A stretch of 63,808 nt of DNA from Paraspadella gotoi (taxonomy: Eukaryota > Animalia > Chaetognatha). The translations under genes and the position numbers were made by a program. This document shows, piece by piece, positions 4,797 to 46,509 of the stretch (its first letter is position 1; every line of letters starts with the position of its first letter). The stretch covers positions 25,028,688 to 25,092,495 of the forward strand of contig CM119263.1 of NCBI GenBank assembly GCA_051294375.1, in the 5' to 3' direction. A model generated the notes under the pieces. It did no database searches. It saw nothing but the letters and a program-made list of their open reading frames with translations, and was not told where the DNA came from.

Positions 4797-13689
<8,893 letters not shown>

Positions 13690-14909
13690 GATATTTCACT
13701 CCACCCCCCACTTTCCCCTCCGATTTCGAGGTGCCTGACTTCGGGCCTCTCTCCAATTCCCCGACTAGTCGCCCCCGCTAGAGCGAACACACTGGACAGT
13801 AATTAATGACGCAGCACGTCCTACGCAAATTCGCAATTGCGTAAATTAATTTTACGTCTTCTCTCCAGTATAATTATTATTACTAGCTTTGACATTTATT
13901 AGTTTTGACTATCGTGATCATTTTAATGTTATGGCGAACATTTTGGTATCATTTTAATGTTTCTTCGTTCCTTTAATCGCTTTTCCCTTTATTATGCATA
14001 CGGTGATTTAAAAGCTAAATACAAAACAAATCCTACTATCTTTTTTTTATGGGTGGGGATTGAGGTACGGAGACAGATTGACGTCAGTCTAAGCAAACAC
14101 GAAATAATAAAAACTATCAAAAGAATAGCTAGCGGATGAGTCAATGGTGACTAGGATGGAGTGATGAAAAGATTGAGTGATTGAACATTATTTTTTTGCT
14201 GCCTATGGACATATAATTAATAAATTTTAAATCCTTTAAAATTTTTTTTTTAGCATAACAGTATAGCAAATTCAATTATTTATGTAGTAATATCCTTATA
14301 AAATCGTCAAATTTCAAAATATTTATTTTTTATTTTTAAGAACTGATTTGGATTCGCTGTAAAAAACTAAGAAAGTTTTATAAAATATGTTATATGATAT
14401 TTTAATGTTTAGATCACAAAAAATAACTAAAACGTTTTAACATATATAAGTTTCTACTACAGAGAATATAAAAGTTAGGAATTTTCACCTTTTTTCTTAT
14501 TTTAAACATTGAAGATGACAGAATTTTTGATAACATGTTTTATATTTTTGATTCAACTTTTTATGAAGAATCTGAATCTTTATTAAAAGTTTGATAAAAA
14601 TTATTTTTAAAATTTACTATTTTATAAGGATATTACTACAAATATATTATATTTTACTATTCTGTTGCCGAGATAATATGAACAAAATATTTTTTGTACT
14701 AGTTAATCATACTATCTCACATCTAAATATCATTGTTCGATCATTCAAATAAATTTTTTGTTCTTGAGTGCTCCACTCTAATGGTGACGTCTCTGAAATT
14801 AAAAATGAGAAAATACTTTAAACTGTAAATACAATTTTTTTAATAAATAATAATTGTTTTAAATTTATTTTAATTGGTATTTTTATGTTTGATGTAGAAA
14901 ATGAATTGT

Positions 14910-16430: not shown

Positions 16431-16936
16431 ATCATAATCTAGGTTAAACCACTGTTTTATTTTCGCTCGCCGCTTCTGTTAAGTAGTCAATAATAATCGT
16501 CTCTCAAAAATAAAAAACAATTCTATCTTTATTTTGCCGGTTTATGGTTTAACTACCAAACAATGTATCTCGTTATCAAGTTCCATTAGTGAGGCAGTGA
16601 GGAAGTTGAAATGTGTGTCCATTTTCTTTGTTTCATATCGATTCAAGTATTTTTTGTTAGAATTTCCACTTCATTATGATTTACTGCAATATGCAAATTA
16701 GATTATAGTACCTTTTCATTAATTTTCTTTGATACTATACCTTGGCGAGATCCTTATACTTTTAAGATTTTTTTTATATAAAAAAGCGTGACGCCGACGA
16801 CGACGACTACATCACAAAGAAGCTCAACCGAAACAAAATCGAGCCCCGACCGGCTTCGCCGGCAGGCTCGATATAAATTTATTTACCCGCATCTCATTCT
16901 CAGATTCAAGACAATCGTCTACGAATTTAATCAGCA

Positions 16937-19900
16937 ATGAGGAAAACAATTACAAAACAACCGAATATGAGCAAGCTGATTTACAAACTGGTCTTTCAAT
17001 TAGCCCTAATTGGTTTGGCTCAGAGCGTTTGTCAACTGAAATGTTTACACCAACAAAACATAAGCCGTCGCACAAAGTACCACACATTCTATTGCCATTG
17101 GGTGGGAACAGGAGGACAGACCCTTCTACCGGGATGCGTGACACTCGACCGGGCGGTCATGAGTAACATAACCACCGACTACCATCGCTGTCACAATCTG
17201 AAAAACTGCTTCCGGCGGAAAAACTGTACAGATATGTCGGAAATAAGTTTCTCTGGCATCGGCCTGGAGAGATTGGAATCCGACTTTCTCGCGGAGTTTC
17301 CGGGTCTCGAAAAACTCAACTGTTTCAACAACTCGATTTCGTTCGTGGGCGTGGGGGCTTTTAAAAACTCCCGTCTGCGGTATATAAACTTAAAGGGGAA
17401 TCGCATCTCGGAATTTTCCACTCATTTCGAAAACCTAACTAAAATGAACGCTTTGGATTTGAGACTCAACAATCTCTCAAGGTTGTCGCCTAGCATGTTT
17501 CGTGGAATGAAAAGGTGAGTTCAATATGTAGATAAATTTTAAATGTACATATCGCATTATCCTTTATAGCTTTATAAATATGTCATGCCTAGAGTTCCGA
17601 TAACCGTTAAAAGTTCACGGTTATTAACGGTTAATTATAATTTTAACTTAACCTTTAATGTATTTATTTTAACGGTTAAATTCGGTTAATTTTCAAATAC
17701 GATTTTTGTTATTATTTGTTAGGAAATCCCGTCCTCTCTTATTCTCCTCTCCCTTTCTCACCTTTTTCAATGTTTTTTTTTCCTTTTTTATTATCAACCC
17801 CAATCTTTTTTCTTTCTTAATCTCTCTTATTCTTTATTCCCCTAACTTTATACCCTTATGTTCCTTTCTTTTTCTTTCTCTCTTTTCCCCTCCTTCTTTC
17901 TCTCCTTTCTTTTCTTTCCTTTTTTTCCGCCCTTCCAGTATTTTTTTTCGTTTCAACTAATTTTATTCATTTATATCTCAGAAACAAAGTTTGAAATAAT
18001 TGGCAATAACGATTTATTATCAAGATGAAAATGTACATGTTTTGGCTTTTTTACAAGCCTTCTTCAGCGTCAATATAGTTTGTGAAAATATTAGACAGAT
18101 TTTGTGTAGAAGAAAGAGAAAGAGAGAGAGAGAGAGAGGGGGAAACATAGAGAGTGCAAAGTTTCTCTGCTTCTCTCTCTCTCTCTCCCCATCTTCTACA
18201 CAAAATCTCTCTAATAATTTTACAAACTAAATTGACGCTGAAGAAGGCATGTAAAAAATCCGAAACATGTACGTTTTCATCTTGAAAATAAATTGTTGTT
18301 GCCAATTATTTCAAACTCTGTCTCTAATCTCTAATCACAACGAAAGAAAGAATTACATAACACAATGCATTTACATCAAATAATATTTTGAAATATAATA
18401 TATATGCAAATACATACATTTTCTTTCAAATTAAATTCTTACATGAAAAACTTTTTATTCTATTTTGTTGTTAAAAAAATAAAGAATTATTCTTTTTCTT
18501 TCCCTCTTTAGAACGAACAAAGAAGCAAATGAAATAAAACCGAATGAATAGAAAAAAATTAATAAAAAATTATTATAAAAAATTTAAGAATTAATAATAG
18601 GAGGGAATCTTTAAAAAGACATATAGACTAACTAAAAATATCCTTCAATGATGATATACTTTTTAAACGAAAAAAAAAATATTAATCAATAACTCTTTTG
18701 ATCAATAGCTCAATCAATAAACCATTCAATTAATAAACTAATATTCATATTTTTATTTATAATTATGGTCATGTTTTATGAAAGACTAACAACTAGAAAA
18801 ATAATGAGGAAGAGAAATAGAGAAAGAGAAAGCGAAAGAGAGTATTATGGCAACAGCCGGGTTGCCTGTGATGCCCATTGGGATGGGGCATCTCACTGTT
18901 GGCTTTGGGGCTTCCGACCCTCAGTGACGCCTCCAGTCACTGGCGCGGTTACCCTAGGACGGTCTCGCTTTGCCAACGCAGAGGGAAGTCGTTAGGACTG
19001 TGGATGGAACACTACGCCTGGGATGGTGTGTTCCCCTCTGAGCCAATGGATTTGGCTGAAGGATGGTGGACGTGAGGCGGTGTGAATATACCGCCACAGT
19101 ATTTTAAATTTAAAGTATTGTGATTAAACTTTCTTTCGTTGTGTTTTTAGATATTTAAAATTAAAGACAAAATTCAAAAGCACTGATGAAGGCTTGAATG
19201 AAAGCCGAAACTTGTCTGTACAATAAAAATAAAATCATTGCTGTATCAAGACTTTGTCTTTAATTTCAAATTTAAAGTTGAATTATAAAATTAACCGATT
19301 TTAACGGTTAACCGTTAAAAATGTTACTTTTAACGGTTAAGCGAATTTCCTGAAAAATTAACGGTTAACGAAACTCTAGTCATGCCAAAAATGATGATGG
19401 AACGAATTTCTATCTACGTATTGCACATTGTAGTGATGAACTCAAAGACTGCGTGTAAACTTAAAAATAGTTAACTTAAAAATATTTCACAATTATTTTT
19501 TAAAAGAAACTTTGTTATGGCACTGCATTATGCAAATATGAGATTTTCGTGAGGAGGCTTGGGTTTTATTTCAGAATCTATTCTGTTAATCGTTAAAATT
19601 GTAGAAATCAATACAAATACCGTTTTTAGGTTGGGAAAACTGTATTTATGGGGAAATTCCTTGAAGACTATGGATTTTCTGTATGATTTGCCGAAACTCC
19701 ACGAGTTGTCCATCCAGTTCGACGATTCTTTCTCTTCTTCTCTCCAAGACTTTCCTCATTTTGCGAGGATGACGCGTCTCGAAGTCACTTTCGACTCCTG
19801 GGCCAACGTCACCATTTTTAACGGGACTCATCGCCGTCTTATCGATCTTAGGATGAATGGCGTGAGCGCCCTGGACGAAGCCTTTTTCGACCAGACGCCC

Positions 19901-22900
19901 GCCCTCCAATTTCTCGTAGTCAATAACGCCAAACTTGGAAACGTAACAAAGAGGCTTTTGTCTCGACTGGAAAACCTCGCAAGTCTTAATATTAACAACA
20001 CGGGAATCGAGTTTGTGGAGAAAGGGGCTTTTGCACAATGCCGCAGACTTCATCAGTTAAAGATGGGAGGAAATCGGTTGCGGGCCATCGATAGAGCCAC
20101 ATTTGAGGGATTGCATCAACTTATCTACGTGGATCTGAGCTTCAATGACTTGACGGAGCTTGGGCCCGACGCATTTTCCAGCTTGAGCCAAGTTAAGATG
20201 ATGAATCTTGGTTTTAATCGCCTTAACTTTATCGACCCTTCGGCCTTTGTCAAGACAATCGAAATTCAACACATAGATCTTGAAGCCAACAATCTGACTG
20301 AATTAAATCTCCCCCGACTGAGCTCGTTGAGGACGCTCATTCTGGACAACAACTCCTTCGTGATTCTCGATACGAAGTTGATGAAGAATCTAACGAGTCT
20401 TGAGAGAATTTCCATCTTGCACAACCCGCTGAAGAGAATTCCGGCGCCGTCCTTCATCTTCGCCCAGATCGTGGACATCAGTTTCGGGTGCTGCTCCGCG
20501 AGGTACGAAGAGAACGAGCGTCTTCAGTGTCACGACACGTCTATCAGGGTGGACAAGAACGCGCTGAAACTTTCTAACTTTTTCCAAGGGAATCGAATGA
20601 TGAGAAGGGTCAGGATATTGGGTTGTGTCGACGATTTTCACGCCGACCACTTGGTCATTGAAACGAATGAGTTCATCCTTCGCTGGAACAGTTGGCGAAC
20701 TTCTCTGGGGAACCTAGATTTGAAAAATGTAGGAGACAATGCTATATTTGACATAAGGAATAACGACATATACCGAATTAACAATAGACAGTTTCCCAAC
20801 ATGAAGGCAAAACTGCTCGATCTTTCACACAACCGCATAAGAGAAATAAATCCTAATGCCTTCGCCGATAGCAGCATAGAACACATTCGTTTGAATGGGA
20901 ACGAGCTCAAAACCCTTTCAATTATATTGAATTTGGAAAGTCCAGCCATTTTTCAGTCAATCGAATTACAAAATATGAGTTTGGAAAGTTTCTCACTCAC
21001 AGCGAAAGATGGAGCCTGTAAGCAATATTTGTCTCTGGATTTGAGCCATAATCAAATAGAAAATATGAATAGCATTCAACTGCAAGGATTCAAACATTTT
21101 AGTACAATAAATGTCAGCAACAATAGAGTTAAAACCTTTAATTCTGATGCTTCATTATTTGACATTGAAAGTATTGACAACTTTGACATTAGCAATAACT
21201 CGTTGAAAGTTTTACCAGAAGAGATACTGGATATGAAACATACATTTATCAAGGCTGATGGAAACGAATGGGATTGCTCCAAGTGTATTAATGTGTACCT
21301 ATTCGCTCATGCAAAAAAATACATGGACATTCAAGGCATGACATGTTACAACAATGTTCCTTTCAGTTTGAATGCGACACTCAACCAGTGTTTGATTGAA
21401 GAGATATACATTCCTTACCCAATTGTTTCGATTGTTTTTTTAACAATCCTAATGAAAGTAATCCATTCCATAAACATATTGCGATTAATGAGAAAATACA
21501 ATGCGTACCAAAAACTTTGCTTGAATAGTTTGAGCGCGAGAAAGAAATTTGTAGGAAAATCAAAGCTACAGCAAAAATTAAATCATAATAATATTTTAGT
21601 CTTGTATGGATTTGCTACCGAATTAAATCTCAAAACATTTTTTTTGTCGGGTTATTTGTTCACAGAAACGCCATACAGCAGCCTTCAAGAAGCGTTGAAT
21701 ATGTTCAATGACAAACAAATTATCTTGGACAGGGAAGATCTTTGTAAGCAACTTTTAAAAGCTATTGATTACCTTCATTCCTCATCACCTCCAGTCTACC
21801 ATTTGGGGCTATGTTTTGAATCTCTCCATTTGGCAGGAAAGGCCTCCGATTGGACTTTGAAGCTGAGCAATTTTTCAACTGCCCAAGTACCCGGGTCATT
21901 TGACCAGTGCTATGCGCTCCGCGATCTCCACGACGCCGCGGATCTTATTTCTTTGATGATGCAGCCTTCGACGATCGAATTCAAGGTCCTCGCCTCCGCT
22001 CTGCGCCATGGGCTCTTTGCTGCAAAGGCCCTGACGTCGCCCGCCTTCGTTCCCATCAGCACTCGCATATCAATGATACAACAGATGAGCGAAACCCTCA
22101 AGCGCTGGAACAAATTAACGCCCAATGCGCAGGCGCGGATCCCCGGATTCCAAATGGTGGAAGTCAACTCGAGCCTAGTCATAGGAGGTCGTGGCTCCTG
22201 GAACAAACTCTTTGCTCGTGAAATCATGGAAGAGTTTGGCTTTAATCACAAGGGCTATAGGACGACCAAGTTCATCGACTTGATTCGCTTCGTGCGTAAC
22301 ATCATTGCTCACGCCCAGGATCACCCGGACCTTATGTTGAGCGCCTTGGGCGCATCGACTCCCACCGACGACCAGTTTTATTCATTCTTCTCGAATTTGT
22401 TTCCTTACTTTTATCTTCACGCTATGCGCATTCACGAAAAAATTGAAAATACTAGCGGGTTTGACGATGACATCTACTTTTGCGAGTATGGGGAGCACGA
22501 GAATTCGGCTAACGTGGCAGGGCTGGCGGACGGATCGGTACTCAGGCTGGACGATGAAAGCCACGTCCATGTGACCTTTTCGTATTTCGACCCGGACGCC
22601 ATGTACTCGGTCTCAATTGCCAAAACGTTAAGTTTTCATGAGGGAGAACCGAGGTCGAGGGTGGACGGATCTGACGTCGTTAAAGAAATCATGGCTGACG
22701 TGAACACAATTTGGCCCCAAACGATCGACGAAGGCCTCGACGGCATCATCGCCAAGAATCACCTTGGAGACAACATTTTCGTCAAAGGGGCTACCAAACA
22801 AAACGCGGGAGTATTGGAAGGGAGCACCGTTGAGATTTCCAAGATGCAATGCCTCGTCCACTCGCCCTCGGTACCGAGAGGGTCCGGCTTTAAGTTTATC

Positions 22901-23095
22901 TGGGACTATCATTCCAAGAGCAACGTGGAAGCTTTAAAGGGGAAGGTCATTCTGCGACTTCGCGAAGTGGGGCATGGAGCGGTTCGTAAGGAGCAAATCT
23001 CCGTCTATCGAAACGGAAAGAAACTCGCGGCATCCGACAACATTCTCAAATTGGATTTTTCTGGCTGTCCGTTTATTGTGGAGTGCGGATCTTAA
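16937..23095 (+). CDS. LRR-ectodomain, single-TM receptor with cytoplasmic pseudokinase + KEN (IRE1/RNase L-like) RNase domain and C-terminal ubiquitin-like region (2 exons, ~1340 aa)
   Basis: Exon 1 is 16937 (or 16967)-17514 (AAAG|GTGAGT) and exon 2 is 19630-23095 (TTTTTAG|G); they join in phase (MK-R-LGKLYLWGN). Signal-like MSKLIYKLVFQLALIGLAQSVC; many LxxLxLxxNxL repeats; LRRCT-like GNEWDCSKC; TM IYIPYPIVSIVFLTIL (~21404-21465); kinase remnants HNNILVLYG, KQLLKAIDYLHS, LKLSNFS; KEN motif YRTTKFIDLIRFVRNIIAH...FYSFFSNLFP. Confidence 0.85.
17980..18325. mobile_element. Palindromic (inverted-repeat) element with a hammerhead-ribozyme-like motif in each arm; Penelope-like pseudo-LTR remnant
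   Basis: Left and right arms of ~170 bp are reverse complements. The right arm has GACG-CTGAAGA-AGGC..TCC-GAAAC-ATGTA-CGTT (18234-18275) followed by AATAAA; the left arm has the mirror copy with GAAA mutated to AAAA. Confidence 0.7.
18846..19097 (+). repeat. Dispersed GC-rich multi-hairpin repeat, copy 2 (inside the hAT element)
   Basis: Six local hairpins, e.g. GATGCCC..GGGCATC, CAGTGAC..GTCACTG, GGCGGT..ACCGCC; flanking AGTATT direct repeat. Confidence 0.75.
19180..19219 (+). ncRNA. Minimal type I hammerhead ribozyme motif
   Basis: GCA-CTGATGA-A-GGCTT(GAATGA)AAGCC-GAAAC-TT-GTC-TGT: intact CUGAUGA and GAAA core, stem II, GUC cleavage triplet at 19214-19216 and a short stem I. Followed by AATAAA and flanked by the inverted repeat AAATTAAAGACAAA/TTTGTCTTTAATTT. 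Confidence 0.65.
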
Positions 23096-24825
23096 ATTTT
23101 TCGTAAAATGTTTAAAAGATTTAGAAGAATTTTTATAAAAAATCCCCAATACCATAGCCATAGGTGATTTTTTAACTAAATTTTTTTTTTGGATAGAGCT
23201 CGATCCAGTTTTTGTTTAACACGGATATAAACCTTTTTGATTAAAAATATTTTATTTCATTTCTTAATCTATTTCAATAATCTATTTCAATAAATCAGGA
23301 TTGAGACAAAAAATAAAAAAGATTCTAAGCTTATTAAAAAAAAATTATTAACAATAATGATAATAATAACAATAATATAAATAACTAAAAAAATTAATAT
23401 TATTAAAAAAGAAGATTTTGGTTCAGTTCCCACCTCAAAACTTTTTTTTAAAACAAAATAATTTAGTCTAATTTTAGAGGATCACCATTTTGTGATGGCT
23501 CGGCTATATCTGGATATTGGGATTAAAGAGCCAAAATCCATGAAGGGTGATGACCTCAAAAATTATTTTGAACATATATAAAAATATTAAAAAATAAATA
23601 ATAAATGTATTCTATTTAAAATATAAGAAAAACAAATAAAAGTCTATTAAATTTACATCTAATATGTAAGGACGCCCCTTTCTTTAAACAGCTTTCCCCA
23701 GTATGTATCCCTATAAGAACATACAATTCTACTTTGTTGTCTTAACCCTCAATAATAACGAATCATAAATAACCTTTATCCCATAACAAATTATCCTCTC
23801 CACCCCTTTCTGTTCAGACTTTTAGATATTTTGAAATTTTCAATAAATGACTTCTTTACAAGAATCAGAAAACTAGGGCGGAAAGTATCTTTTAACTTTG
23901 TGTTGTATAGATGCTTCCTCTATTTCCAGAAGACAACATTAACGTCCCTCTCTCCCTTACATTATATTTATAAAAGAATATACTTTAGATAGAGAATATA
24001 ATTAAATCTAATATATAATGAAATTTATTAATTTTTTTCATTTTAAATTTAATACAAAAATTTAGTAAAGTAATCTTGCAATTTTTCATAGTCATAGGCT
24101 ATGCTCTCCTTTTATTCCAGTTTGCTTCGGTTTGAGCAAAGTTTCAAATTTTTTATAATAGAATTTCTGCATGCTAATTAATCTATGATCGTGCATATTT
24201 TCTGGTGGGTATTTATATCTAACCGATTTTTTAACCTGATTTTTAAATTTTGCTTTATTTTACAGTAAAATTTTCTATCATTTATATTATAAGTAATTAG
24301 TTGCACTAATGTATGCCTATTCGGTTTTAGTTTTTTTAAATTTAATTTTTACTTAGACCGTTAACATTAATTGATAATAATAATATAAATATTACTTTAG
24401 ATTAATTTTGAATTCTCCCGGCACTTCAGCTGCACCAGATGCCGCAGCTGCGGATTCTATTCTATTCAGAACTAACTCAGTCAAAACAAAATACAGTCCA
24501 GAACCAGAGCGTGATAAGCAGCCAACCGTTTCTTTGTGCAATTAATATTATAATTATATGTTAACTGCCAATGACTCGAATATTTTTAATTCATGTTTTT
24601 CTCTTTTCCCTTACAAAAAAAAGGGAAAAAATCATGTCAAAGCTGTTAGGGGGAAATTACGGTTAAAAATAATAACATAAAAACCGTAAAAATCTGGGGC
24701 TTCTCGTTGTTCATGGAAAAACTTTTTTTTTAAAAAAAGCGGTTGTAACCAAAGATTTAAGATTACAAACTTTTTAACCAAGACCACGGAACTACTCAAC
24801 CCTCTCCGTTCAAACGTAAATCACG

Positions 24826-26913
24826 ATGGGCGTATGCGGCCTTTTCGAATATTGCGAGCTTCACCGGAGGGAAGTTTCCACGCGAGTCGATCTGCTTGAC
24901 CTCCAGCGACCGTTCAAGCACCGACCCGTGGAACTTCTGGTCGACTTGAAAGATTTCGAGACGTTCGTCGTCGACAGCGTCATCGATCGCGCGACTCTCG
25001 TGGAATCGAACGAAGAGAACGATAGAATGATCAGTTGTGGCGGCGACTACGACAAATACGATTCATTTGTGCAGGTATACTTTTTATTGAAATTCTTGGG
25101 AAGTTAAAAAATTGGTTTTCCTCGTCCCCCCCCCGGAAAAAAAAAAATAACGGCAACTAATTTGTAGGGCTTCATTTCCACCCTAAAAAAACTGAAAATT
25201 CAACTGCGCTTTTACGCGACAAAAACGCTCATTGACGAAGAAATCCCTGGCCGCGTCCTTGATCGTTGTACTGCGCGTACATCAAAGCGTTGTGCCTTCA
25301 TAGAGGGCGTTCGGCAGTGGCTCGAAAATCCCGGATCCGAGGAGGAAAACGATTGGCGTCCCTCGAAATGCCTTCGATCTCCGCTCCTACGAACGCAGGT
25401 GTTAAAATCAATCCAAGAAGCCGGCGCCGTGGTCGTCGTTAATGTAGTCAAAGAGACGACGTCGTTGGCGACTGAATTAAGTCGGAGACGCGACGCGTTG
25501 GCCATACTCGCTCGCGCCGAAGACAACGCCATAGTAAAAGGCTCTAGGTTCATCCCTTTCGCCTGGTTCGACGTCAGGGACGATCTTGGAATCCGAACAA
25601 AGAAATTCGCCTCTCTCCAGGTCCTTTTAAGTATTTGAGAAATATTCATACAATCATTCTTTCCGTATAACTTGATGGTTTAGGCATAGTAAACATACTA
25701 AACATACCACAGGCATTCAATCCTGGACCACATAAACTTTTTTGTGACGTGATCACTCCGGAAAAGTTGGCTTTTAGCATGGGTCTTTCTAATCCACAAC
25801 TTCTCGCCGAAGTCGCCATCTTAAAGGGAAACAATTTTACCCACAAAATAATGCGCAACGTCCGTCTCCGGTGAGGCCTGACGTAAATAGGCAGTCATAT
25901 TAATTTATCCTACATATTTAATTTTTTAATAATAACCCTGCACCAGAGATAAGCTTCGACTCCCCAGGACACACTGGATAGAGGACTTCGCGGCTTGGGT
26001 GGCGCGACATGGAGAGATCGAGTCCAACGCGTTTCTGTATCACCTTATGAGAACCGACTTAGACTTTCGCGAGGCTGTGTCGGCGTCGCGGCGTCTTTAT
26101 TGGGCGTCGGCGTCGTCTTTTTTCCAACTCCCGTCAACGGATACGCAACTACGAGACGCTATCGACCGTCGTGTCAATGCTGTTTCCGGCGCCTTTTACG
26201 TGAGATTCCCTCCTGATTTTCTTGCAATGCATCACGGCCTCTATCGACCGATCGGATGTACTCTGTACGGAGAAAAGGACTCTTCTGGTGGCATAATCGT
26301 CGAACAAACGACGTCGGTCGTTCGTCGCCTTCGTAGCCTCCTCTACGACGTCTTGGTCCCGAGCGGACAGACAACTCGCGAGATCTTCGACCGACCCGAC
26401 GCCGACGGGGTCGTGATCGAAGACGTAAAAGCAGCCGGGATCTTGGAGTCTCTCGTTAATTTGAGTCTAAAGTCGAAGCCTGATAGGACAAATGAGTTAA
26501 CGAGGGCCTTGAAGTACGCCGCGGACGTTGTAGGCGACGAAAAATCCGCTAATGATTTTCTTCAAAGGTTTGGATTAAGAAAGTTATGTCTCTTGTGGTT
26601 GTTCCGATTCTCCGCTCAAGGATTCTTTCTCGAAAACTCCGAACGATACGCCGTTTACGAATCGATGACCGGCGATCATCTTTACGAAACCGCACACGCA
26701 CCTCGTCCTTCGTTTAGATGCTGGTCTGTCTTCAATCTCCTACAAGTTGTTTACCTCCATTTGTGGTGGCTGACTCTCGCTCTCGAACTCGACGATCTCC
26801 CTCAACCGGCCGACATTTTTAACGGACAATCTTTTGTCCATTTGTTTATGCTTAACGATTACGACCGGAGTAAACTTGAAAGTCAGGCTTTATTTAAGGC
26901 TACAGTGGCATGA
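24826..26913 (+). CDS. Asteroid (ASTE1)/FAM120-like XPG-type PIN-fold protein (4 exons, ~608 aa)
   Basis: Exons 24826-25074, 25168-25620, 25713-25870, 25947-26913 are in phase. N-terminal MGVCGL, LLVD, CGGDYDKYDSFVQGFISTL (Asteroid-type GGDYD motif), H3TH-like LAEVAILKGNNF, C-terminal QPADIFNG typical of this family. Confidence 0.75.
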
Positions 26914-28046
26914 TTTTTTCTAAAAAATTATTTTACCGTGAAAATTCCTTATCTTTGTTAATACTATTTAAAATTAAATATAGTTACTGTCGCTGTTGAA
27001 ATAAAAGAGTTAATTTCATTGTCAAATATAATTTTTTAAAGGTTTTTAATACGTTCATTAGGGTCTTTCCTCGGATTAAATATAAAGATTTATCCTCAAG
27101 TATAAAGTGCTTACAATTAGTATTCTCAAGAGATTTTTGGAAACATTTTAAATATCAATTACCATTTCTGTAGCATGGAAAATCTTTTCAAGATATTAAC
27201 CAGTCTTTTGTCTTAGAACGGATTTGAGTCACTTTTCCTTGGCAACTCGGAAAGAAGATTGATCCCTATTGAATGTTAGGCATTTTTTTGTGGCTGTACA
27301 GTGTACAATAGTGATGAGAAAATGATAAAATTTTAGAAAATTAAAATTTAACATATAGAATATGAAAACAAAAACCAATAAAAATACTTAGGTAAATTTA
27401 TTTTTTAATTTTATACAATATAATAATAAGTATATAATAGTAAAATTTCAAAATGTAAATTTTGAAATTTTAAGATCGGATTTGGATTCCTTGCAAAAAG
27501 TTGATATAAGAAAATATAATTCTTTTTTTAAAATTATTTTATTAAGTTGGTCAAAAATTAAAAAAATTATATTTAAATACTAATTTTTAATTTCCAGCTT
27601 AAAAATATAATTTTTTATAATTTTAACCTACTTAATAATATAATTTTTAAAAAAGATTTATATTTTCTTTTATCAACTTTTAACGAGAAATCTGAATCAG
27701 TTCTCAGAATTTAAAAAAAACATTTTAAAATTTTAACATTATATAAGGGTAGTACTATATACAAAATAAGCTGACTGGCTGACTGACTTGGAAAAAAAAA
27801 AAACTTCAAATTAATATTTATTATTTTTCAAGATATAACTGCTAAATTTTGATTCCAAACTTTCACTTCACCCTAGTGTACAATGAATGAGGCGAAGCAT
27901 TGTCCTCCAACAAATGCATGAATCTTTTCAGGTCTTTTCTTTTATAAAACACGAGTTTTTTATGTGAATCACTGAATGCCATAAATTAACAAAAGTAGTC
28001 ATTAAATCATGTAAAAGGTGAAGCCAAACAAAGAAATTAACAACTA

Positions 28047-31000
28047 TCAGTATTTCCAAAGAGATACTTTGTCCATAAACGTCCTAATCCGTTGTAAGTC
28101 TAAAGCATTACTCCATATTCCTCCGTTCTTGAAATGCGAGCCAACGATCAACGCGGAAGCTTCTTTGAAAAAATTTACGTTTTGCTCTGAGACCCCAGAT
28201 CCGATCATAATATTAGTACCGGAAGGCAGCTTTTGTTTTAAATCCTGAAAAAAAAAGGGCTCGAAAAATGGGTTCGATTCTTGGCCGATGCATTCACTTT
28301 TATCATTTTGATCCCTTTCACTTTTATACTTATGAAGTTGGTACTATTAGTTTTTGTTAATTTTTTGGGTCTAAAATATTTCCAAACGAAATCATATATG
28401 CAAAATTAATTACCTGAAATACTTGGGGGTTTACAGGGTCTCCTGTTTGACTTCCAGTAATAATGACGCCATCGCTGAGAAAAAACAAGGCAGCTTTCGA
28501 GGCTTCCTCCAAGGAGATGTCGCCAGTTATAGAGTGAGAACTTGAAATATTTAAAAACTATTGTTAATATTTTTACTGTATTAAATTACTGAAATATTCG
28601 TTTCGCTTTATGCCATAAGATCAGAAATGATTGGAGTGGATAATAGGCCGGAACAGGTTGAAAACTAAAAGTTCTTTCAAATAATTAATGGTTGAGTGAC
28701 TGTTAAAGAATATAAAAATAAAAATAATTTTTAAAATTTATCTTATTGATTAACGCACAGAAGCATTTAAAAATTATTTTACTATATAAAGTTTAAAATT
28801 GTTTTTAATTTTTCAATTTTTTTAAATAGATTCTGGTAGAGCTTTAAAAGTTAGATAAAGCTTAATAATATAACTTTTTAAAATTGTTTTGTTTTACTGA
28901 TAAAAATTAAAAAAAAAACCATAGAATTCAGCCGATGATTTTTTAAGGTTTTTTTAAGTTTTAACCAATTTATTGTCAAAATTTTAAAAAATTGTAGTAC
29001 TAACTTTCATTTAACTTTTCCAGCTCTATAAGAATCCGTTTTTAAAAAATAAAATAAAAAAAAAAATTTTGTCTTTTATTATTTATTAATAAATATATTC
29101 AAAAGCTTCAGTGCAACAATCAAATAAACTAATTGAAAATAGAATTAATAATAAAAAAAAACAACAATTTTTTTGAGAGAACTAGAAGTTATAAAAAGTG
29201 TTCAATTTTGGCCCACCTTAGTGGATAAGACTTCATTCTACAAAATTTCATACAAGAGTAAAATATTATAATAATGTTATTATTAAAAAAACATCGATTT
29301 GGGATACATTTCATACACACATATAATTTCATTAAACCATGCATTCAAACCATTTGGCTGGTTCATTTTTCAAGGCCAGAAAAATTATATCCAGAATCGA
29401 TGTTTTTTTTTAATTCAAACTTAGTGCAAGCGATGACATTGTTATTATCTTGAAAGAGGGATGGAGGCCTTAACCCACCATAGCCCGTTTAAAGCTTGCT
29501 TAATGTTTATTAAATGAATAATTTTATAGGAGTAAAACCTTTTTTACCTATGCTTTTTCTTTATATCTGTAAATACTTTGATGTGCTCAGCACCAATGTT
29601 CTTTCTATATCTGAGCAAAGGTCCGGCACATCCATCGATGAATCCTTCGTCGGCAATGTGACTAAAAACAAATCCCTCTAAAACCCAACCCAAGAAATAT
29701 AAAAATAGGATTTGCTAATTTCATATGTTACATTTCATATGTTCACTTTTACCAGCTCTTATAAAATCAAGATCGGCCGCAAGCGCTACTGCTAATGCTT
29801 CTCGATTAGCCCCGGCTAATATTTGAATCCCGATAGGCAAGTATGGAACCGTTCTTCGCACTTCCTTTGCGATGGTTGACATGGAAGCAATTATTTCCGG
29901 TCCTAAAGAAAATGGAATACTGGTAATGTATATAATTATTAAGTCAATGATTGCGTTTACTTCGTGAAATTTTCTTACCAATATACCGAGCTTTATTATA
30001 AGGTATGTCATGCATGTTTTCTAGAATAATACCATCTAATTTGTGGTCACGAAATGTTTCCGCCTCTTCACAAGCATTATCTAAAAAAAATCATAAAATA
30101 AATAAAATCACAATGCTATTAGTTTAAAAGCTTATTTTTACATTTGCTGACTGGGATTTTGTGGTCGGTTATTTTTTTTCGCTTCTTATGAGCGACGTAT
30201 AGATATCTACGCAAAAATAAAAGGATACTGGTAAGGGTATTGTTTTATTACAAATCCCTAACTACCCCTAACCACCCCTAATCCTTAACCAACCATAACC
30301 CAATTGCTAACAAAAAAAAAATATAACAAAAATATTGTTTTTATCTCGTCAAACGGGCGAATGCCCGACTTGGGCGAGATGTTAATTAGTTTGCTTCTTT
30401 TGACCGTTTTCATTATTATCGTCGTCATCACGCTGTTTTAACATTTAAAATAGCTCAAGTGTGTAACCATAGGAAGCTTCAAATCAGCAAGATCTTTTCG
30501 ATTCAGATGTTTTATATTTTTCCATTCATTTGTTTTTTTTTTTTACAAAACACTTTATATATATATATATATATATATAGACGAGTTAACGTCTGGCGAG
30601 ATCACTATACTTTTAAGATTTTTCCTTTCCTTTGTTTGTTTACGTACAGCGAGTTTTATTAAGAAACATAAATTTCGGACATGTTTCGGCTTCAATGAAA
30701 ACTTTTATCAGAGCAAAAACGAATTGATTTGTGAAAATAATATTTTTACAGATTTTGAAGATTGAAGAGAAAGAGAGAGAGAGAGAGAAAGAAAGAGTTT
30801 GTGAAAATATTTGTTTTACAAATCAATTCATTTTTGCGCTGATGACGGCTTATATTGAGGCTGAACATGTCCGAAATTTGTCTCTTTATAAAAATCGTAC
30901 GTAAATAATTCATTTTTTACTTAAAACATAAAAATAGCAATTAAAATAAATCTAAAACTATTATTATTTATCTTAAAATGTATATTACTAAACAAAAAAA

Positions 31001-31264
31001 TGTATATTATTGCTCAAACCGAGACACGACGCTAGAGGGATAACAAAATGAAATGGATTAACAAAGCACCGACCGTTGGTACCTAAGGTTGGTTGCGGTC
31101 GTCGAATAGTAAAGTTACCCAGTTTAATTTTTTTAGTGAAGCAGAAGCTTACCGATTAGCTCCATAATGGATTTCCTATGCCGTGGTACTCCTGGTAAGG
31201 GTCCAATATGGACCATGCCCAAAATCGAAGCAAACTTTCCATTAGAAAGATTTCTCAAACTCAT
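28047..31264 (-). CDS. BtpA/SgcQ family TIM-barrel protein (6 exons)
   Basis: Exons 31264-31153, 30080-29979, 29902-29753, 29677-29548, 28540-28414, 28244-28047. Family motifs: ILGMVHIGPLPG, DGIILENMHDIPY, PIGIQILAGANREALAVA, DFIRAEGFVFSHIADEG, VFTDIKKKHSSH, DGVIITGSQTG, IGSGV, ALIVGSHFK. Confidence 0.92.
30639..30906. mobile_element. Palindromic element with degenerate hammerhead motifs in both arms (BtpA intron 1)
   Basis: Arms are reverse complements around a (GA)n centre; + arm CTGATGACGGCTTATATTGAGGCTGAACATGTC, - arm CTGATAA...AAGCCGAAACATGTC. Confidence 0.65.
31021..31121 (+). repeat. ~100-bp dispersed repeat, copy 2 (BtpA intron 1)
   Basis: Collinear with 2368-2469. Confidence 0.7.
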
Positions 31265-32083
31265 GTTTTCAGTTTTATATGTAATTATGTAATTAATATA
31301 AATAATTCAGAAAACGAAAATAAGGGATAACTATTGAAAAACCAAAAAAACTAAGTCTTTAGTATAAAGTACAGGCGGCTTCTATTGTGCACGGAAACGG
31401 GGAATATTTTAACTTTTGTGTAACGTATATAGAAATTATTTTAAAAAATCCGTTAGAAGATTTTGTTTATAATTTTTTTTTTCACTGGCATTAAATTAAT
31501 CATTAATATATAAGTGATTAACTGATAAAAAGATTTCTGCAACGAGCACGTGACTTTTTTTAACCAATAAGAATTTAAAAAAAGTTAAAAAACATCAGAT
31601 TCAGTCATTAGTTTTGACTGTTTATGTCGTACTTGTAGGAATTAAATTTTTATTTTGTAAAGGTTGATCGCGTAAATTTCGGTTACTCCTTTATCTTCCG
31701 GTCAGGGTAAAAAGGACTTACGATTTTTGTGAACTTTTGTTTTGGGATAATTTGTAGTTTCTAGTTCTTCGTTGGATCAGCTGATTCTGACTGCTCTGCC
31801 AGCCCGATTAGCCCGTTTAGATGGGCCGATACTTGGTGGGCGATCTAATTTTGATATTTTTCCTTCTAAGAAACATGACTATAAGCTCTCTTATTATTGT
31901 CTCTCACGATCCTTATTTTTCATAATTGTTAAAATCGTTATTATTTTTGAATATTTTAAATTGTTTTTATCGATTTGCTTTTCAAAACATACGGCCAATT
32001 TTATTTCATTCATATTTAGTTATTAGATTGACCACTGACACGAAGTTCCGAAACCCATCTCATCAAATCCACGTAGAACTCGT

Positions 32084-33565
32084 ATGTTTTTACGTCTTCC
32101 GTCTAAAGTCCGAGAAAGAATGCGTCCAGTTAAGTATGTGATACCGCGGCGATTGGAGAGAGAGACAATATTGCAAAGACGATTAGAACGAATATCGATT
32201 CGGGGACGTCCGGTCTTGCCACGAGTTATCTATCGACCTCGCAGAAAGAATTTGACAGAAAACATACTTACAGAATTATATAATCTGCCAGGTATTGGGT
32301 CATGGTTAAGATGTGTAAGCAACGAACAACTTTTCTTTAAAAAAAATAAACACAAACCTGTTCTCAGACGATGTCGAGTTATCTTCCCTGGAGCTGTTAA
32401 CCTTCGGAGACTTGGAGAACATCATGATGGCTCAGTTGAGCAAGGAAGCTAGCAGAAAGGATTTTCCCGATCATCCTTGCCCCGAAGCAATCTCGCTAAT
32501 CCGAAAAGACGAGACAGAGAGCGTCCATAAAATTGTGTCATCCGTCGACGATGTAACTGGATCAGTCGTCTTTGTTGGGAGCGGGATCGAAAAACTTCCT
32601 ACTAACGATTGTACTTTATTCAAAACGGAGCCTCGTGGTAAAGTTAACATCAGATACGTATTTATAACGGCTATTTATTAAAAAAAATTCCGTGTTTTCC
32701 ACACGTTTTAGGAATCAAGGAAGAGGCGAACTCTGTATTAGCGAATGGAGGTTCTTCGAATGTGATACACGAAAATGGGGTAGACGTAAAAAAGGAATCA
32801 CAGTTTCATGGTTACAGCGACTTCTTAAACAGTGACGCCGATCCTTTCGACGATGCTAAGGATGGCGTAAACAAGCCAGACGACGAGAGTAGCCTTCCAC
32901 GGGGAGACCCTTTAGTAGTCGGTCAATCGGTTTTCCCGATCGGCTCCACGTCTTTCCCTTCTTTTCGCCCAGGCTCAGACACCCTCTCTTTTAACCTTTC
33001 GAGATTATTTGATTCTCCCGAAGCCTTGGTCGCTTCCGCGCCAGAAATACCTTATATATTCACGCGGGACGTAATCGATTCTTGCTCTGTCCACGCTGAC
33101 GTTGCTCCGCGCTTCACCCTCGTCGCGGATTCGATGGATTTCGTCAATATTGGCGGCGCCAATTATCGGATGGTCTTCGCCGCCGAAACCAAAAAGAATG
33201 TGCTCAACCTCAAGTGGAGTTCTTGCGGTGTCGTGACTAAACAGAAAAAATCCGAGACGTTTATGAACTCAAGAAAGAAAAGCAAAAATCGCAGGAAAGC
33301 CTTTACTAGCTCCTTAAAGAAATCATTTAATAGGAAACTGGACTCGTCCTCTTTCAAACCTATCGAAAAATCGCATAATATTAATAGGATGGAGATGACT
33401 CCAACGCCAAAGTTATTTAGTCGAGTGTCGGTGCAGAGGAACGTCCTTTACATTAAAAACGGGGACAAATTCGGCTACAAACGGATGGCAAAAATGTCCT
33501 CTTGCTCTAAACCTGGTCGGCATTGTTGTTGTCCTCTCAAAAATAATCAATCGATTTGTCGTTGA
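32084..33565 (+). CDS. Unknown protein, probably 3 exons; Arg-rich N-terminus, acidic middle, Lys-rich C-terminus
   Basis: ORF blocks 32084-32291, ~32368-32637 and ~32712-33565 have coding-like composition and are separated by short GT..AG introns (CCAG|GTATTG, TTCTCAG|, TTTTAG|). No recognisable domain. Confidence 0.55.
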
Positions 33566-34987: not shown

Positions 34988-35702
34988 GAAGTCTTTCTCC
35001 TACCATAAGGTCTTCTATTAATTAACGATTGCAACTGTTGATGACCACGCTGTCCCATGAAAGAGAAGTTTTCGGGAACGCGAACCGTAGAAGCCTTGAC
35101 AGTCCAGCCTTTCACCTTTTTATTAACTGAATAAGAGAGATTGCAAACTTAGCATTCATACTTGTTGGTAACGTGACCTTTGACCCTCAGAGATGTTAAT
35201 TAGAGAGCTAGGTTTTGGCATAATTGACTAGTATTTTTAGAAGTTACCTGAAATAATAATTATTTTATTATTATTATTATTATAATTGTTTGATTGACTA
35301 GTTCATTTTATTAAATTTGATAGGGAAACTAAAACGATGTTAATCCTTAAGAGACTAAAAATGAACTTAATGCTTACAAAATAGATACTGAGTTTTTCTG
35401 AATCTACGAAATATTAAACTTTGAGTTTGAACTTGACAGAATTAAGAGAGACAATATTTGAACGGAAGATAATTAATTAATTAGAGGCTATTTAAAATAT
35501 TACTGACATACTAGTTACGATGACAAAAGAACGATACTTGTTTAATAGTTTTCATTTTCTCGCAAATCGTAGAAATCTTAATATTATCCCTTCTGACACT
35601 AGTATTAGTAACTTTTTCTCGAGAATCATACGCTTATTTACGCTAATTCTCAGAACATTAAACATTAATTTTAAAATCTCTTGATTAAATTTTTTTTTAA
35701 TC

Positions 35703-38581
35703 TCAACTTAAAAAATAGAGTCGCACATATACGAATCGGCTTGTTCGCTCCTAATTACTATCAATTAAAATAGCCCCAATGAGAAATTCCAAGAACTGAC
35801 CTTTTTTCTTCGAACACGGGCGCATATCGAGGCAGGGGCTCGGAAGTTCCAAGCAACGATTTAGCCTTTTGTTGAAGAAGAGGAAAATGATAGGGTTGAG
35901 CGTTGAGCTAGTCCAGGCGATTAAATTGGCGCATTTATAAATGAAGAGAGAACCTAAAACGGAAATAAACCATTATTAATTTTTTATTAATAATCTTTTA
36001 TCTAATATTTTTTCGCAGTATAATTTATCCCTTTAATTTTTTAAAAGCTCAAAACCGCCAGGAGAACATTGACAGGGTGAAAGTCGCTGAAAGAGTCCAT
36101 TCATAAATCTTTCCCTCGCGAAAAAAAAAAATCTATGCATAATTGCATATGACGTTATAAAAAACGCAAGTCGTAAATTATCCGCCCGCTTGTTGATTCT
36201 ATCTTTGAAGCGTGGGAACAATTTCACGGGTCAAGGAAAATATGAATTTTACTGCGGTATATTAAAGTAGTTGCGGGAAATGCTCCCTTCAAAACAAACA
36301 AACAATATACTTTCAAAACCTATGAAAATTCCGACCTATGCATATATTCGATTAATCGGCCATAAGTTACCATTTTTGAATTAAAACGCATTGTGAGTAT
36401 TAATTTTTAAACATTTTAATAAAAAAATATTAACCTACTTTTATTTCCCAATAATATTGGCAATATCCTTTATTTACCTTGACTCTGAGTGTCTATGATG
36501 AGCAGCAAAAAGATAGGGTGCCAGAAGACGACAAAAGCGACTAACAGCAGCGTCAAGACCCTCAGTCGTCTCATGGCGGGGGCCTCGAGCCGGGCACGCA
36601 CCGCGCGCGTCTTTGACGAATCCGTCAGCATCTCGGCGTCCACAGGACCGACTGTCATCGAGGCGGTGGACAGGAGATGCAATGTGTGGTGGTAACACGT
36701 CATGCGGATGTCTGCCGAGGGGAGGGGGTAGAATAAGATTAGTTTTCAGTACAAAATGACCATTTTTCCATGATTAACGGCTGACTAATGTTCACTAATA
36801 AGCACCACGTCCTCACCTCGATGGTAACTCCGGAGAAAGTGAGCTGTCATCAAGATTCCGGCTACGTTTACCAAAATCCAGAACGTGTTGATAAAATACA
36901 TGCGAGAAATTGGATCTGAAGGAAATTAAATAAAAAAATGTTTCTGTTGTATGAAAAAATAGAAAAATAGTTAAATACGTATAGAGTAAGGCGTAGTAAA
37001 ATTTCTAAATTTAACTTTAATTAAAATTCTAAAAGTGAGGAACGAACAACATTATACTAATGAACATATATATATAAAAAAAATTTACAATAAATTTTAC
37101 AATTTACGCAGTAGGCCATATTTATACTAGTACTAATTCAATAAATGTTAAAATTTCAAAACAGTTTTTTTAAAGTAGATTTGGATTTGTCATAAAAAGT
37201 TGATAAAAAGAAATATAACCCTTTTTGAAAAATTCCTTCATTAAGTGGGTCAAAAATTAAAAAAAGCTATATTTTAAGCTGAAAATTAACTTTTTATATA
37301 TTAAATATAGTTTTTTTAATTTTTAACCCACTTAATGAAAGAAATTTTAAAAATAATTAATATTTTCTTTTATCAACTTTTGACGAGGAATTCAAATCTG
37401 CAATCAAAATTAAGAAAAGCCTATTTTGAAATTTTTCGATTTTATAAGGATAGTACTATATATAAATATAGCCTACTGCGAAAATTAAAAAACATAAAAT
37501 AATTTTTTTTTACAAATTAATGTTTACTGATGGTATGTTGTTCATAATTTACTTTTAGAATTTCCATACGTAACTTTCACTACGCCTTAGTATAGAGTAT
37601 AGACTCTCACCCGAATTTTGTAGCTCGCAGTTCATTAGCAAACAGCTTCTTTGATCCCAACTTCCGAGTTTCCTGTTTTTAAGGTTTTCATTTAGTAGTT
37701 AAGTACATAAAATTCTATCAATAAATATGGAAATTCCATATCTTACTTAAACGTGTCGCTTGCGAGCAGAACGACGCCAAACAAGAGCAATCCGGTTCCG
37801 AACCAAAGGATGAACAGTCCGAACAGGATACACTTGCAAAGGGCGAAGGGGGGCACCGTAAGGTCGACGTCCATGTTACGGAGGTGGAAAAGTTCGTTGA
37901 CCACCATCGCTGCCATATTGAATATGGTCGTCGTTACGAAGTAGGCGTGGCTGACGCGTAGTTTTGTGCACAGCTTGAAGGCGGTAAAGTGGGCGGGGTA
38001 GGATTATGAGGTGATTTTTTTTTTGTGGACCGACTCACTTCGGGGATTGTGGGCGCGACGAAGTTGGCGGCAATCATGAGGTAGTAGAGAGACTTGGCGA
38101 GATCTAGGAACGCGTGGTGAAAGATGAAGGCGTTGGCTGCGTGACGCCAACGTTTCCGCGCCAGGATCGTCACCATCATGCAAACGTTGCCCAGAACGCC
38201 GAGAAGCCCTGCGATGAAGAGGACATTAGACGTTCTGCAGCTTCTTTTGTTCTTTGATATGTGAAAATGCTGTTCTCTAAATATTTTAGCCAAAATACTT
38301 GAAAAAAAAATAACGATACTACTACTTCATTTATATCGAAACCTATATTTTATTGTCACCAGAAAAAATAATTTGAAAATCGGTACTGATAAAAGTTTTT
38401 TCCAATTTTTAATTTTGTTAGCCTTTCCTCACTAAAAACTTTCATAATCCGTTTTTTAGTTAACCATTCCGTTACCTAATGCCAGCAGGTACTGCGTGTC
38501 TCCGTTGGCTGTGAACACTACGAACATCTTGGGTGCACGCGCGCTCGTGTTGATCGGCCGCTCCAGCAACGCGCTCTCCAT
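35703..38581 (-). CDS. Class A (rhodopsin-like) orphan GPCR, tentatively SREB/GPR85-like; about 8 exons; terminal exon uncertain
   Basis: TM1 GLLGVLGNVCMMVTIL, TM2 ANAFIFHHAFLDLAKSLY, TM3 ending AMVVNELF, TM4 FILWFGTGLLLFG, ECL2 Cys (WDQRSC), TM5 FWILVNVAGILMT, TM6 AFVVFWHPIFLL, TM7 AWTSSTLNPIIFLFFN, in order across GT-AG-flanked exons. Confidence 0.8.
36987..37589. mobile_element. hAT-like AT-rich MITE in a GPCR intron
   Basis: TIR TAAGGCGTAGT(A/G)AAA; perfect 8-bp TSD GTATAGAG; internally quasi-palindromic. Confidence 0.85.
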
Positions 38582-46211: not shown

Positions 46212-46509
46212 AAAATTCAACCTTTTTTTGTTTTGATAAAAAAGTGAGTCACGATAAGATTTTATGATCATCCTTCATTCTCACGCTCGACTTTTCATTA
46301 TGAAAACTTTTCACTTTTTATCTTCTCCTTTCGCAAGCTTCAAATTTACTATTTACCATAATCAATTAATCATCTGCGTCATTCTGTTATCAAAAAATCT
46401 GGGGACTCTGCCTTTCTTTTACTTTGTCCTTTTTTCTCCAGGTTTCACGAACTTTTTCCTTGTGCTTGTCCGGCGGAGACGGACTTACAAAATTTCACAA
46501 ATAATCAAA

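Follow-up and report, generated by a model that had tools for sequence, protein, structure and literature searches.

The question raised by this locus is whether a leucine-rich repeat (LRR) receptor of Toll-like layout can be joined, in a single gene, to a pseudokinase and KEN ribonuclease of the kind found in IRE1 and RNase L, and what such a receptor would do. Within the window, by which we mean the whole 63,808-nt stretch of DNA that was analyzed, the gene consists of two forward-strand exons (16937-17514 and 19630-23095) that, when joined, encode 1347 aa with a single terminal stop. Exon 1 (aa 1-193), in a frame open over 16931-17518, encodes a likely signal peptide, a Cys-rich N-terminal cap, and the first LRRs (LRR_8 E 1.6e-11; 33% to the relative P0002). 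Exon 2 (aa 193-1347) holds the other LRRs, an LRRCT cap, the membrane helix, and the entire cytoplasmic module in one open frame (19553-23095), as had been proposed for the later LRRs through the C-terminus. The intervening intron of 2115 nt (17515-19629, GT-AG, phase 2) contains repeats, and its ends in the window sequence read GTGAGT...TTTTTAG. Pfam, PDB, and AlphaFold2 results together give the domain order as LRRs, LRRCT, one predicted membrane helix, a truncated pseudokinase, a KEN RNase, and a ubiquitin-like tail. The AlphaFold2 model (pLDDT 86.5, pTM 0.82) was built from a family-only alignment without templates, and a single-sequence model (pLDDT 34.7) was set aside. The preliminary description of the locus had listed the LRRs, membrane helix, pseudokinase, and KEN, all of which stand, and had missed the ubiquitin-like tail, the wider family, and the occurrence of the output module on a ROCO protein.

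It is exceedingly improbable that this fusion is an artefact of chance read-through, mis-assembly, or pseudogenization. The exact window ORFs, searched in two start choices only, are absent from the protein collection, as such an artefact might be, but the genomic frame is unbroken from the LRRs to the catalytic His within one open frame of 1180 codons, and the splice joint, the covering contigs, and the end-to-end relatives P0002 and P0006 all argue against it. One contig of run X1, the kind of which was guessed as RNA and which may stem from a sample of the source organism itself, omits exactly 2115 bases with GT..AG ends and joins the exons precisely at the 17514/19630 junction that had been put forward for checking; its shorter side is 158 letters long, and the splicing support for the gene comes from this one contig in this one run. 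Other X1 contigs lie on exon 1 (16823-16997 and 17253-17512) and exon 2 (19628-19785, 19792-20546, 20590-22141, and 22132-23220). The contig at 20590-22141 runs from the LRRs through the LRRCT, membrane helix, and pseudokinase into the first KEN codons, and that at 22132-23220 contains the catalytic motif together with the 3' end. Because these two overlap by 10 bases only, no single listed contig extends from the LRRs to the catalytic His. Where they lie on the exons, the listed X1 contigs do not differ from the window, and in runs X2 and X3, a simple repeat is the sole match. The earlier claim that the fusion is not a product of gene modeling thus holds on the splice contig, the covering contigs, and the two relatives.

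The putative extracellular part matches several kinds of LRR protein. A signal peptide (aa 1-30, 16937-17026, with Met11 as an alternative start) is predicted by hydropathy only (KD19 1.68) and ends in AQS, in keeping with the signal-peptide-like N-terminus proposed earlier; the N-terminus of P0006 is likewise a hydrophobic stretch (KD19 2.09). The main LRR solenoid (19630-21259) is matched by LRR_8 in 7 stretches (E 9.6e-37), and 17 N-glycosylation sequons lie upstream of aa 740. Among PDB entries, it most resembles generic LRR proteins, namely ALS (3e-36), TLR13 (3e-28), LGR5 (4e-26), and TLR3, and they do not favor TLRs over ALS, LGR, or LRRC proteins. The solenoid ends in an LRRCT cap (21260-21391; Cys742, 745, 765, and 780), as the preliminary description had read it, and P0002, P0004, and P0006 have the same cap ahead of the membrane helix. 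The predicted single membrane helix (21422-21481), followed by basic residues, likewise agrees with that description: hydropathy across the protein is highest at aa 791-809 (KD19 2.05), and the position is kept in relatives. The helix includes the polar residues Lys802, His805, and Asn808, and its Lys..His pair is common to P0002, which is 44% identical here. The helices at the same position in P0004 (KD19 2.51) and P0006 (2.09) are cleaner.

With Toll-like receptors, the window protein has in common a predicted signal peptide, LRRs, and an LRRCT adjoining one membrane helix. Its cysteine-cluster layout is of the one-cluster type (scc), whereas that of P0006 has two clusters, like the mcc Toll receptors as defined in the available text of PMC8609888. 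Unlike Toll-like receptors, it has no TIR domain and would deliver an enzymatic output instead of recruiting adaptors. We reject identity as a TLR since the cytoplasmic part is taken up by pseudokinase, KEN, and ubiquitin-like folds; TIR-less proteins are also excluded from the TLRs in the part of PMC8609888 consulted.

Beyond the helix lies a truncated pseudokinase with a shortened C-lobe (21500-22051), for which the Pfam Pkinase match (E 8e-4) falls under its cut-off of 31.7. Judged by its sequence, this kinase is dead, with a degenerate nucleotide-binding N-lobe: HLG stands at the HRD position and NFS at the DFG position, and the 7 family rows compared at the catalytic loop lack HRD as well. 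With ~20 residues from the membrane helix to the alphaC-like segment, there is no room for a Gly-rich loop. In the AlphaFold2 model, the N-lobe is short and mostly at pLDDT <50; confidence is low through most of aa 817-873 and high beyond. When the kinase-KEN fold of this model was searched with Foldseek, it matched IRE1 (E 7e-9) and RNase L (E 1.7e-7), a comparison that had been suggested beforehand and that upholds the kinase-fold remnants first noticed in the sequence. The VIA alignments rank in the same order, with IRE1 at Z 19.1 (rmsd 3.1 A over 259 residues), RNase L at Z 16.4, and the best plain kinase, WNK1, at Z 12.6. LRR receptor kinases of plants, oomycetes, and Monosiga also combine LRRs, a membrane helix, and a kinase fold, but the kinase here is dead, is of IRE1 type by fold, and is followed by KEN. 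Membership in the active receptor-kinase group is rejected because the catalytic motifs are lost and the best folds are those of IRE1 and RNase L. Beyond land plants, such receptor kinases are reported only from Monosiga, Chlorella, and stramenopiles in the available text of PMC3268121.

Directly after the kinase C-lobe, the KEN (HEPN) RNase (22070-22456) is detected as Ribonuc_2-5A (PF06479; E 5.1e-13, 49.7 bits vs. a cut-off of 23.3) and by a PDB match to yeast Ire1 (2rio, E 2.6e-8), bearing out the KEN-like block that had been proposed. The catalytic residues are present as Tyr1069, Arg1082, Asn1083, and His1087. KEN activity needs the Arg, the next polar residue, and the His, according to the part of PMC3710099 consulted, and the corresponding Rx4-6H motif with a polar residue after Arg is found here as R1082-N1083-x3-H1087. 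The His is aligned with the His-to-Asn change of 3sdj, a structure titled as an RNase-inactive mutant. Among family sequences covering the site, Arg-Asn is present in 27/27 and His in 26/27, and the position at -13 is Tyr in 19/25, His in 5/25, and Gln in 1/25. Selection for catalysis best accounts for a near-invariant Arg-Asn-x3-His among sequences that are ~21-39% identical to the window protein, and these residues point to a working RNase both in the window protein and in its family.

We consider it very improbable that the KEN is something other than a ligand-switched nuclease, be it an RNA binder, a scaffold or decoy acting with the ubiquitin-like tail, or an enzyme under the control of proteolysis or of a partner receptor instead of homodimerization. 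The degenerate N-lobe and the ubiquitin-like tail would suit such a role, the polar residues might serve to pair the membrane helix with another chain, and Tyr is replaced by His or Gln in 6/25 sequences, but a catalytic motif so nearly invariant among sequences so divergent argues against it.

The closest known system is IRE1/ERN1 (yeast Ire1p and human IRE1alpha; PDB 2rio, 3fbv, and 7bmk), with which the window protein has in common a type I layout of sensor, helix, kinase fold, and KEN, the same overall fold, the same catalytic residues, and a single membrane helix (predicted here). In the window protein, however, an LRR solenoid and LRRCT replace the ER luminal domain, the kinase is truncated and dead, and a ubiquitin-like tail is added. 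Identity as IRE1 is rejected given the lack of an ER luminal sensor, the HLG/NFS residues instead of active kinase motifs, and a position apart from the 5 IRE1-like rows of the trees (100/100). RNase L (PDB 4o1o, 4oau, and 6m13) likewise joins a repeat-domain sensor to a pseudokinase and KEN, and its fold is similar (Z ~16), but the window protein has no ankyrin 2-5A sensor and is predicted to sense across a membrane. The RNase L structures, as their titles state, bind nucleotide analogues, whereas the N-lobe here is degenerate. The LRRs and predicted membrane helix, with no ankyrin match at E up to 1, lead us to reject identity as RNase L.

The KEN is followed by ~200 more residues, of which the final 85 show a ubiquitin-like fold. 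This C-terminal domain (aa 1263-1347, 22838-23092), which has no terminal di-glycine, aligns with the Get5 UBL in VIA at Z 12.1 (rmsd 1.7 A, 76 aligned residues) and has a beta-grasp fold; the family profile matches the RAD23B UBL (E 0.0056), and the relative P0014 has a Pfam ubiquitin match (E 3e-4). A probable first ubiquitin-like domain (aa 1166-1264, 22547-22843) shows a beta-beta-alpha-beta-beta arrangement in the AlphaFold2 secondary structure and is kept in the family, and the match to linear ubiquitin 5b83 spans it, covering model residues 352-531. It has no useful Pfam match and is barely covered by the fold searches, and its profile comparison with the second domain (probability 0.3, E 0.22) is level with controls. 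The tail probably holds two ubiquitin-like domains, one of them shown. OASL and ISG15, in which ubiquitin-like domains stand in tandem, are similar in having integral ubiquitin-like domains, as a tail on an enzyme of RNA-defense type; the chicken OASL and ISG15 UBLs score Z 10.4-10.5, a likeness at the fold level only that is tied with many other UBLs. A rice KEN-UBI fusion is listed in Table 1 of PMC3710099, in the part consulted.

The window protein belongs to a family that makes up 37/50 of the search matches, the relatives being environmental records and mostly fragments. Two members are full-length LRR-TM-pseudokinase-KEN proteins: P0002 aligns end to end with the window protein across both exons (~30%), and P0006 has the same architecture. 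These independent relatives indicate conservation of the fusion. In the LRRs, the window protein and its closest full-length relative are only ~29% identical. Tandem pseudokinase units occur in P0004 (2) and P0009 (4). P0058, a cluster-mate of one match, carries the same pseudokinase-KEN-UBL output on a ROCO sensor (LRR-ROC-COR), its COR being assigned by position and sequence reading without a Pfam match, and also has a Thr-rich loop flanked by two hydrophobic helices. Its LRR, ROC, COR-like region, and kinase fold recall ROCO proteins of the LRRK and MFHAS1 type, a likeness of P0058 and not of the window gene, but its output differs from theirs. Our trees resolve several deep subfamilies and separate 21 family rows from 5 IRE1-like rows (100/100), as does a second tree (14 vs. 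5), with this small outgroup of 5 IRE1-like rows and with RNase L rows left out. A single clade for the four LRR-TM rows is not rejected by the AU test (p 0.20). Such diversification and sensor swapping would be typical of immune genes.

We hold with moderate confidence that the gene encodes a predicted single-pass LRR receptor-ribonuclease in which a ligand would pair receptors and switch on cytosolic RNA cleavage, most likely in innate defense. The KEN sites of IRE1 and RNase L are known to be active only as dimers; the LRR-TM part would, by the same logic, be a ligand-gated dimerizer. The LRR sensor likely faces the outside or an endosome, ligand binding would bring two receptors together, and the assembled RNase would then cleave cytosolic RNA, as in IRE1. 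Given the degenerate N-lobe, the switch would rest on the ectodomain and membrane helix and not on ATP or autophosphorylation, and the shared Lys..His pair of the helix may aid pairing. More tentatively, the output could be RNA decay on a broad scale, an arrest of translation, or cell death. A role of the ubiquitin-like tail might be to regulate or stabilize the module or to link it to the proteasome. Several observations weigh against this receptor-ribonuclease reading: the hydropathy of the membrane helix is moderate, and three of its residues are polar; the N-lobe, which helps to form the active back-to-back dimer of IRE1, is degenerate and modeled with low confidence; and the ectodomain matches are not TLR-specific. 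There is also no immune-cluster context, as no paralogue lies within the window and the neighbors found encode an actin-related protein, a BtpA-family member, a GPCR, and amino-acid transporters. These neighbors indicate an animal without pointing to a particular phylum.

Some of the same observations would suit an endogenous ligand, such as a hormone, a developmental cue, or an ER/secretory-pathway signal, acting through the same ligand-gated RNase chemistry on selective mRNA cleavage or IRE1-style unconventional splicing instead of defense. The KEN and overall fold are nearer to IRE1 than to RNase L, ALS, LGR4/5, and LRRC32 match the ectodomain as strongly as TLRs, and the gene is single-copy within the window. 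We nonetheless regard this alternative as unlikely, for the family is diversified, with tandem duplications, sensor swapping, and divergent LRRs, unlike single conserved developmental receptors. A receptor for self/non-self recognition or cell-contact killing, with LRRs that recognize the surface of another individual or a damaged cell and an RNase that kills the responding cell, is allowed by the architecture and the divergent LRRs, and HEPN RNases are often suicidal (PMC3710099, in the part consulted). The X1 exon contigs, being identical to the window, are uninformative on population variation, and we consider this reading improbable.

The preliminary description knew of no such architecture, and we found no LRR-TM-KEN receptor in the literature searched or among the matches listed, a scope outside which lie subscription journals and InterPro/CDART. 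For plant receptor-like kinases, the available text of PMC7333395 records Ribonuc_2-5A in every one of the 10 species and does not link it to LRRs, entries that we read as ordinary IRE1, and RNase L is not mentioned in the part of PMC6723221 consulted. Word-based searches, which are weak evidence for absence, gave no homologue among 7985 candidates, none in a search limited to 2551-5000 aa, and P0006 alone among 6752. A pattern scan of metagenome loci from alignment A5 yielded 587 matches, none of them a relative, and the ESM Atlas, for clusters of at least 50 only, returned kinase, pseudokinase, and IRE1-like clusters alone. NCBIfam gave weak LRR and kinase cross-matches only, far under their cut-offs, and Rfam nothing at gathering scores.

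Among known kinase-KEN enzymes, IRE1 senses the ER lumen and RNase L senses a cytosolic second messenger, and known Toll-type receptors signal via adaptors and transcription. We see the case as evenly balanced for a third animal kinase-KEN class, that of one-component pattern-recognition receptors coupling surface or endosomal ligand binding to RNA destruction, with a pseudokinase-KEN-UBL module that would be swappable, like TIR, behind Toll-like (scc and mcc) and ROCO sensors. If this reading is true, an LRR ectodomain on a KEN RNase would let an animal cell answer an outside cue with RNA decay without adaptors, through a compact, putative ligand-gated RNase. The logic of sensor plus HEPN effector, known in bacterial defense, would then extend to animal membrane receptors, and the family offers a natural test of KEN switching without a nucleotide-binding N-lobe.

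The receptor gene comprises two exons on the forward strand (16937-17514 and 19630-23095), whose open frames lie where the preliminary description had placed them. Removal of the 2115-nt GT-AG intron between them leaves a single reading frame that encodes 1347 aa. RNA support had been sought for the 17514/19630 junction, and one contig of X1, a sequencing run with contigs matching the window, lacks precisely this intron and nothing else. Other X1 contigs on the gene cover 16823-16997, 19792-20546, 20590-22141, and 22132-23220. The contig at 20590-22141 joins the LRRs, LRRCT, membrane helix, pseudokinase, and start of the KEN domain, and it overlaps the last contig by only 10 bases. That the receptor is an artefact is scarcely credible. 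The kind of run X1 (RNA) is a tool's guess, and because it is possibly the source organism's own sample, we take it as evidence of splicing and not of an independent occurrence of the gene.

The intron carries two minimal hammerhead-ribozyme-like cores (CTGA[A/T]GA...GAAAC) on the forward strand, neither of which matches Rfam at gathering score. The core at 18238-18266 is followed by a palindromic stem of the kind typical of Penelope-associated hammerheads, while that at 19183-19211 has a 5-bp stem II. A repeat of ~250 nt (18840-19110) has a second copy at 11564-11801 (79% alike) and a summed contig depth of up to 41,553 in X1; it is SINE- or retrozyme-like, with many related copies. Within the 63,808-nt window there is no second receptor copy. 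To survey the neighborhood, we compared 115 of 143 selected frames with Pfam and ran additional searches. On the forward strand lie a divergent, multi-exon actin-related gene (~11300-13700), one exon of which matches Actin at E 8e-6, and at least four amino-acid transporter genes (Aa_trans, PF01490) arrayed in tandem (41998-63062, Pfam), while the reverse strand contains a BtpA-family gene (PF03437, ~28000-31300; E 9e-8) and rhodopsin-type GPCR exons (~35700-38400; 7tm_1 E 4e-4, S1P5 E 1e-4). These neighbors mark the genome as that of an animal. Long forward-strand open frames at 24800-26913 (156 and 325 aa), 32039-33565 (305 aa), and 46258-47343 (361 aa) have no Pfam match.

The LRR ectodomain, LRRCT-like cap, and membrane helix of the preliminary description were all recovered, the helix as a prediction. 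The LRRs match LRR_8 in Pfam (E 9.6e-37), and a four-cysteine LRRCT (aa 737-780) precedes the most hydrophobic window of the receptor by hydropathy (aa 791-809), which includes Lys802, His805, and Asn808. Because the Lys..His pair recurs in the related protein P0002, and two other relatives, P0004 and P0006, have cleaner helices in the same place, we take aa 791-809 as a real but unusual predicted membrane helix.

The kinase-fold remnants and KEN domain likewise held up: Ribonuc_2-5A scores 49.7 bits against a Pfam cut-off of 23.3, and the kinase match is sub-threshold. For aa 817-1347, AlphaFold2 was run on an alignment of 36 family sequences, with no IRE1 rows and no templates; the resulting model reaches a pLDDT of 86.5 and pTM of 0.82, although its first 57 residues are mostly unreliable. 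In the structural comparison that had been proposed, its best match is IRE1 (Foldseek E 7e-9; VIA Z 19.1, rmsd 3.1 Å, 259 aligned); RNase L scores Z 16.4, and plain kinases fall well below both (Z 12.6). The kinase is dead, judging from its motifs: HLG stands in place of HRD and NFS in place of DFG, and a Gly-rich loop would not fit. The KEN domain retains the catalytic residues Tyr1069, Arg1082, Asn1083, and His1087. His1087 aligns with the histidine altered in 3sdj, an RNase-inactive Ire1 mutant. The last 85 residues are ubiquitin-like in the predicted model (Z 12.1, rmsd 1.7 Å) and lack a di-glycine; the preceding 100 residues probably form a second UBL domain. We infer the membrane topology of the receptor, as we do a role for its ubiquitin-like tail.

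With the cytoplasmic part as query, phmmer returned 50 matches (E up to 0.001) among 1.84 billion representatives, which we sorted by reading into 37 members of the receptor-module family, mostly fragments, 5 IRE1-like sequences, 7 other kinases, and 1 unrelated sequence. The 28 of 50 representatives looked up are all ENA, Logan, or JGI records, titled, if at all, hypothetical protein or kinase. P0002 (1393 aa) aligns across both exons with ~30% identity. P0006 (1457 aa) is hydrophobic at its N-terminus; its LRRs carry two cysteine clusters and are followed by a helix, pseudokinase, KEN, and tail. P0004, which starts within the last LRR, shares this layout but with two pseudokinase units. Such C-lobe units occur in tandem before a single intact KEN in P0004 (two) and P0009 (four). 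The ROCO-type P0058, a cluster-mate of P0005, consists of a ubiquitin-like-looking N-terminus, LRR, ROC, COR-like region, and the pseudokinase-KEN-UBL module, which is thus common to different sensor types; a shorter mate, P0055, ends upstream of the module. In P0058, two hydrophobic helices flank a Thr-rich loop. P0020 lacks both LRRs and a membrane part and places an intact-looking kinase (HRD, DFG) before a family-type KEN; it is possibly an ancestral form, on a long branch. In KEN-region trees, which include no RNase L row, the family separates from the 5 IRE1-like rows at 100/100 and falls into several subfamilies.

Among the 27 family sequences covering the KEN site (the window protein included; non-reaching fragments excluded, with P0022 and P0051 breaking off just before it), Arg-Asn is present in all 27 and His in 26. 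The receptor is very probably an active RNase, and a module that is non-catalytic or gated differently appears most improbable. We lean toward a mechanism in which a ligand would pair two ectodomains, bringing two KEN domains together and turning on cytosolic RNA cleavage as a defense response. Ligand-driven pairing is in itself likely, and activation as a dimer would follow what is generally known of IRE1 and RNase L. The LRR sensors, diversification, tandem duplication, and sensor swapping point to a probable immune role; an endogenous ligand with selective cleavage is an unlikely alternative reading, and a receptor for contact or allorecognition killing a rather less likely one.

In its predicted layout the receptor resembles IRE1, but it lacks the luminal domain and active kinase; it shares a repeat sensor and pseudokinase with RNase L but has no ankyrin sensor and is predicted not to be soluble. 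It also lacks the TIR domain that defines TLRs. In the portion of the HEPN survey PMC3710099 consulted, the KEN partners given are kinase, ankyrin, CCCH, UBI, and BRCT, with no LRR receptor among them; solo KEN expansions are described in Oikopleura and monocots, and the LRR fusions belong to another HEPN family, DZIP3/hRUL138. The literature searched yielded no description of an LRR-TM-pseudokinase-KEN receptor. The receptor-RNase architecture is real and conserved, apparently undescribed, and a further version of the sensor-kinase-KEN plan.
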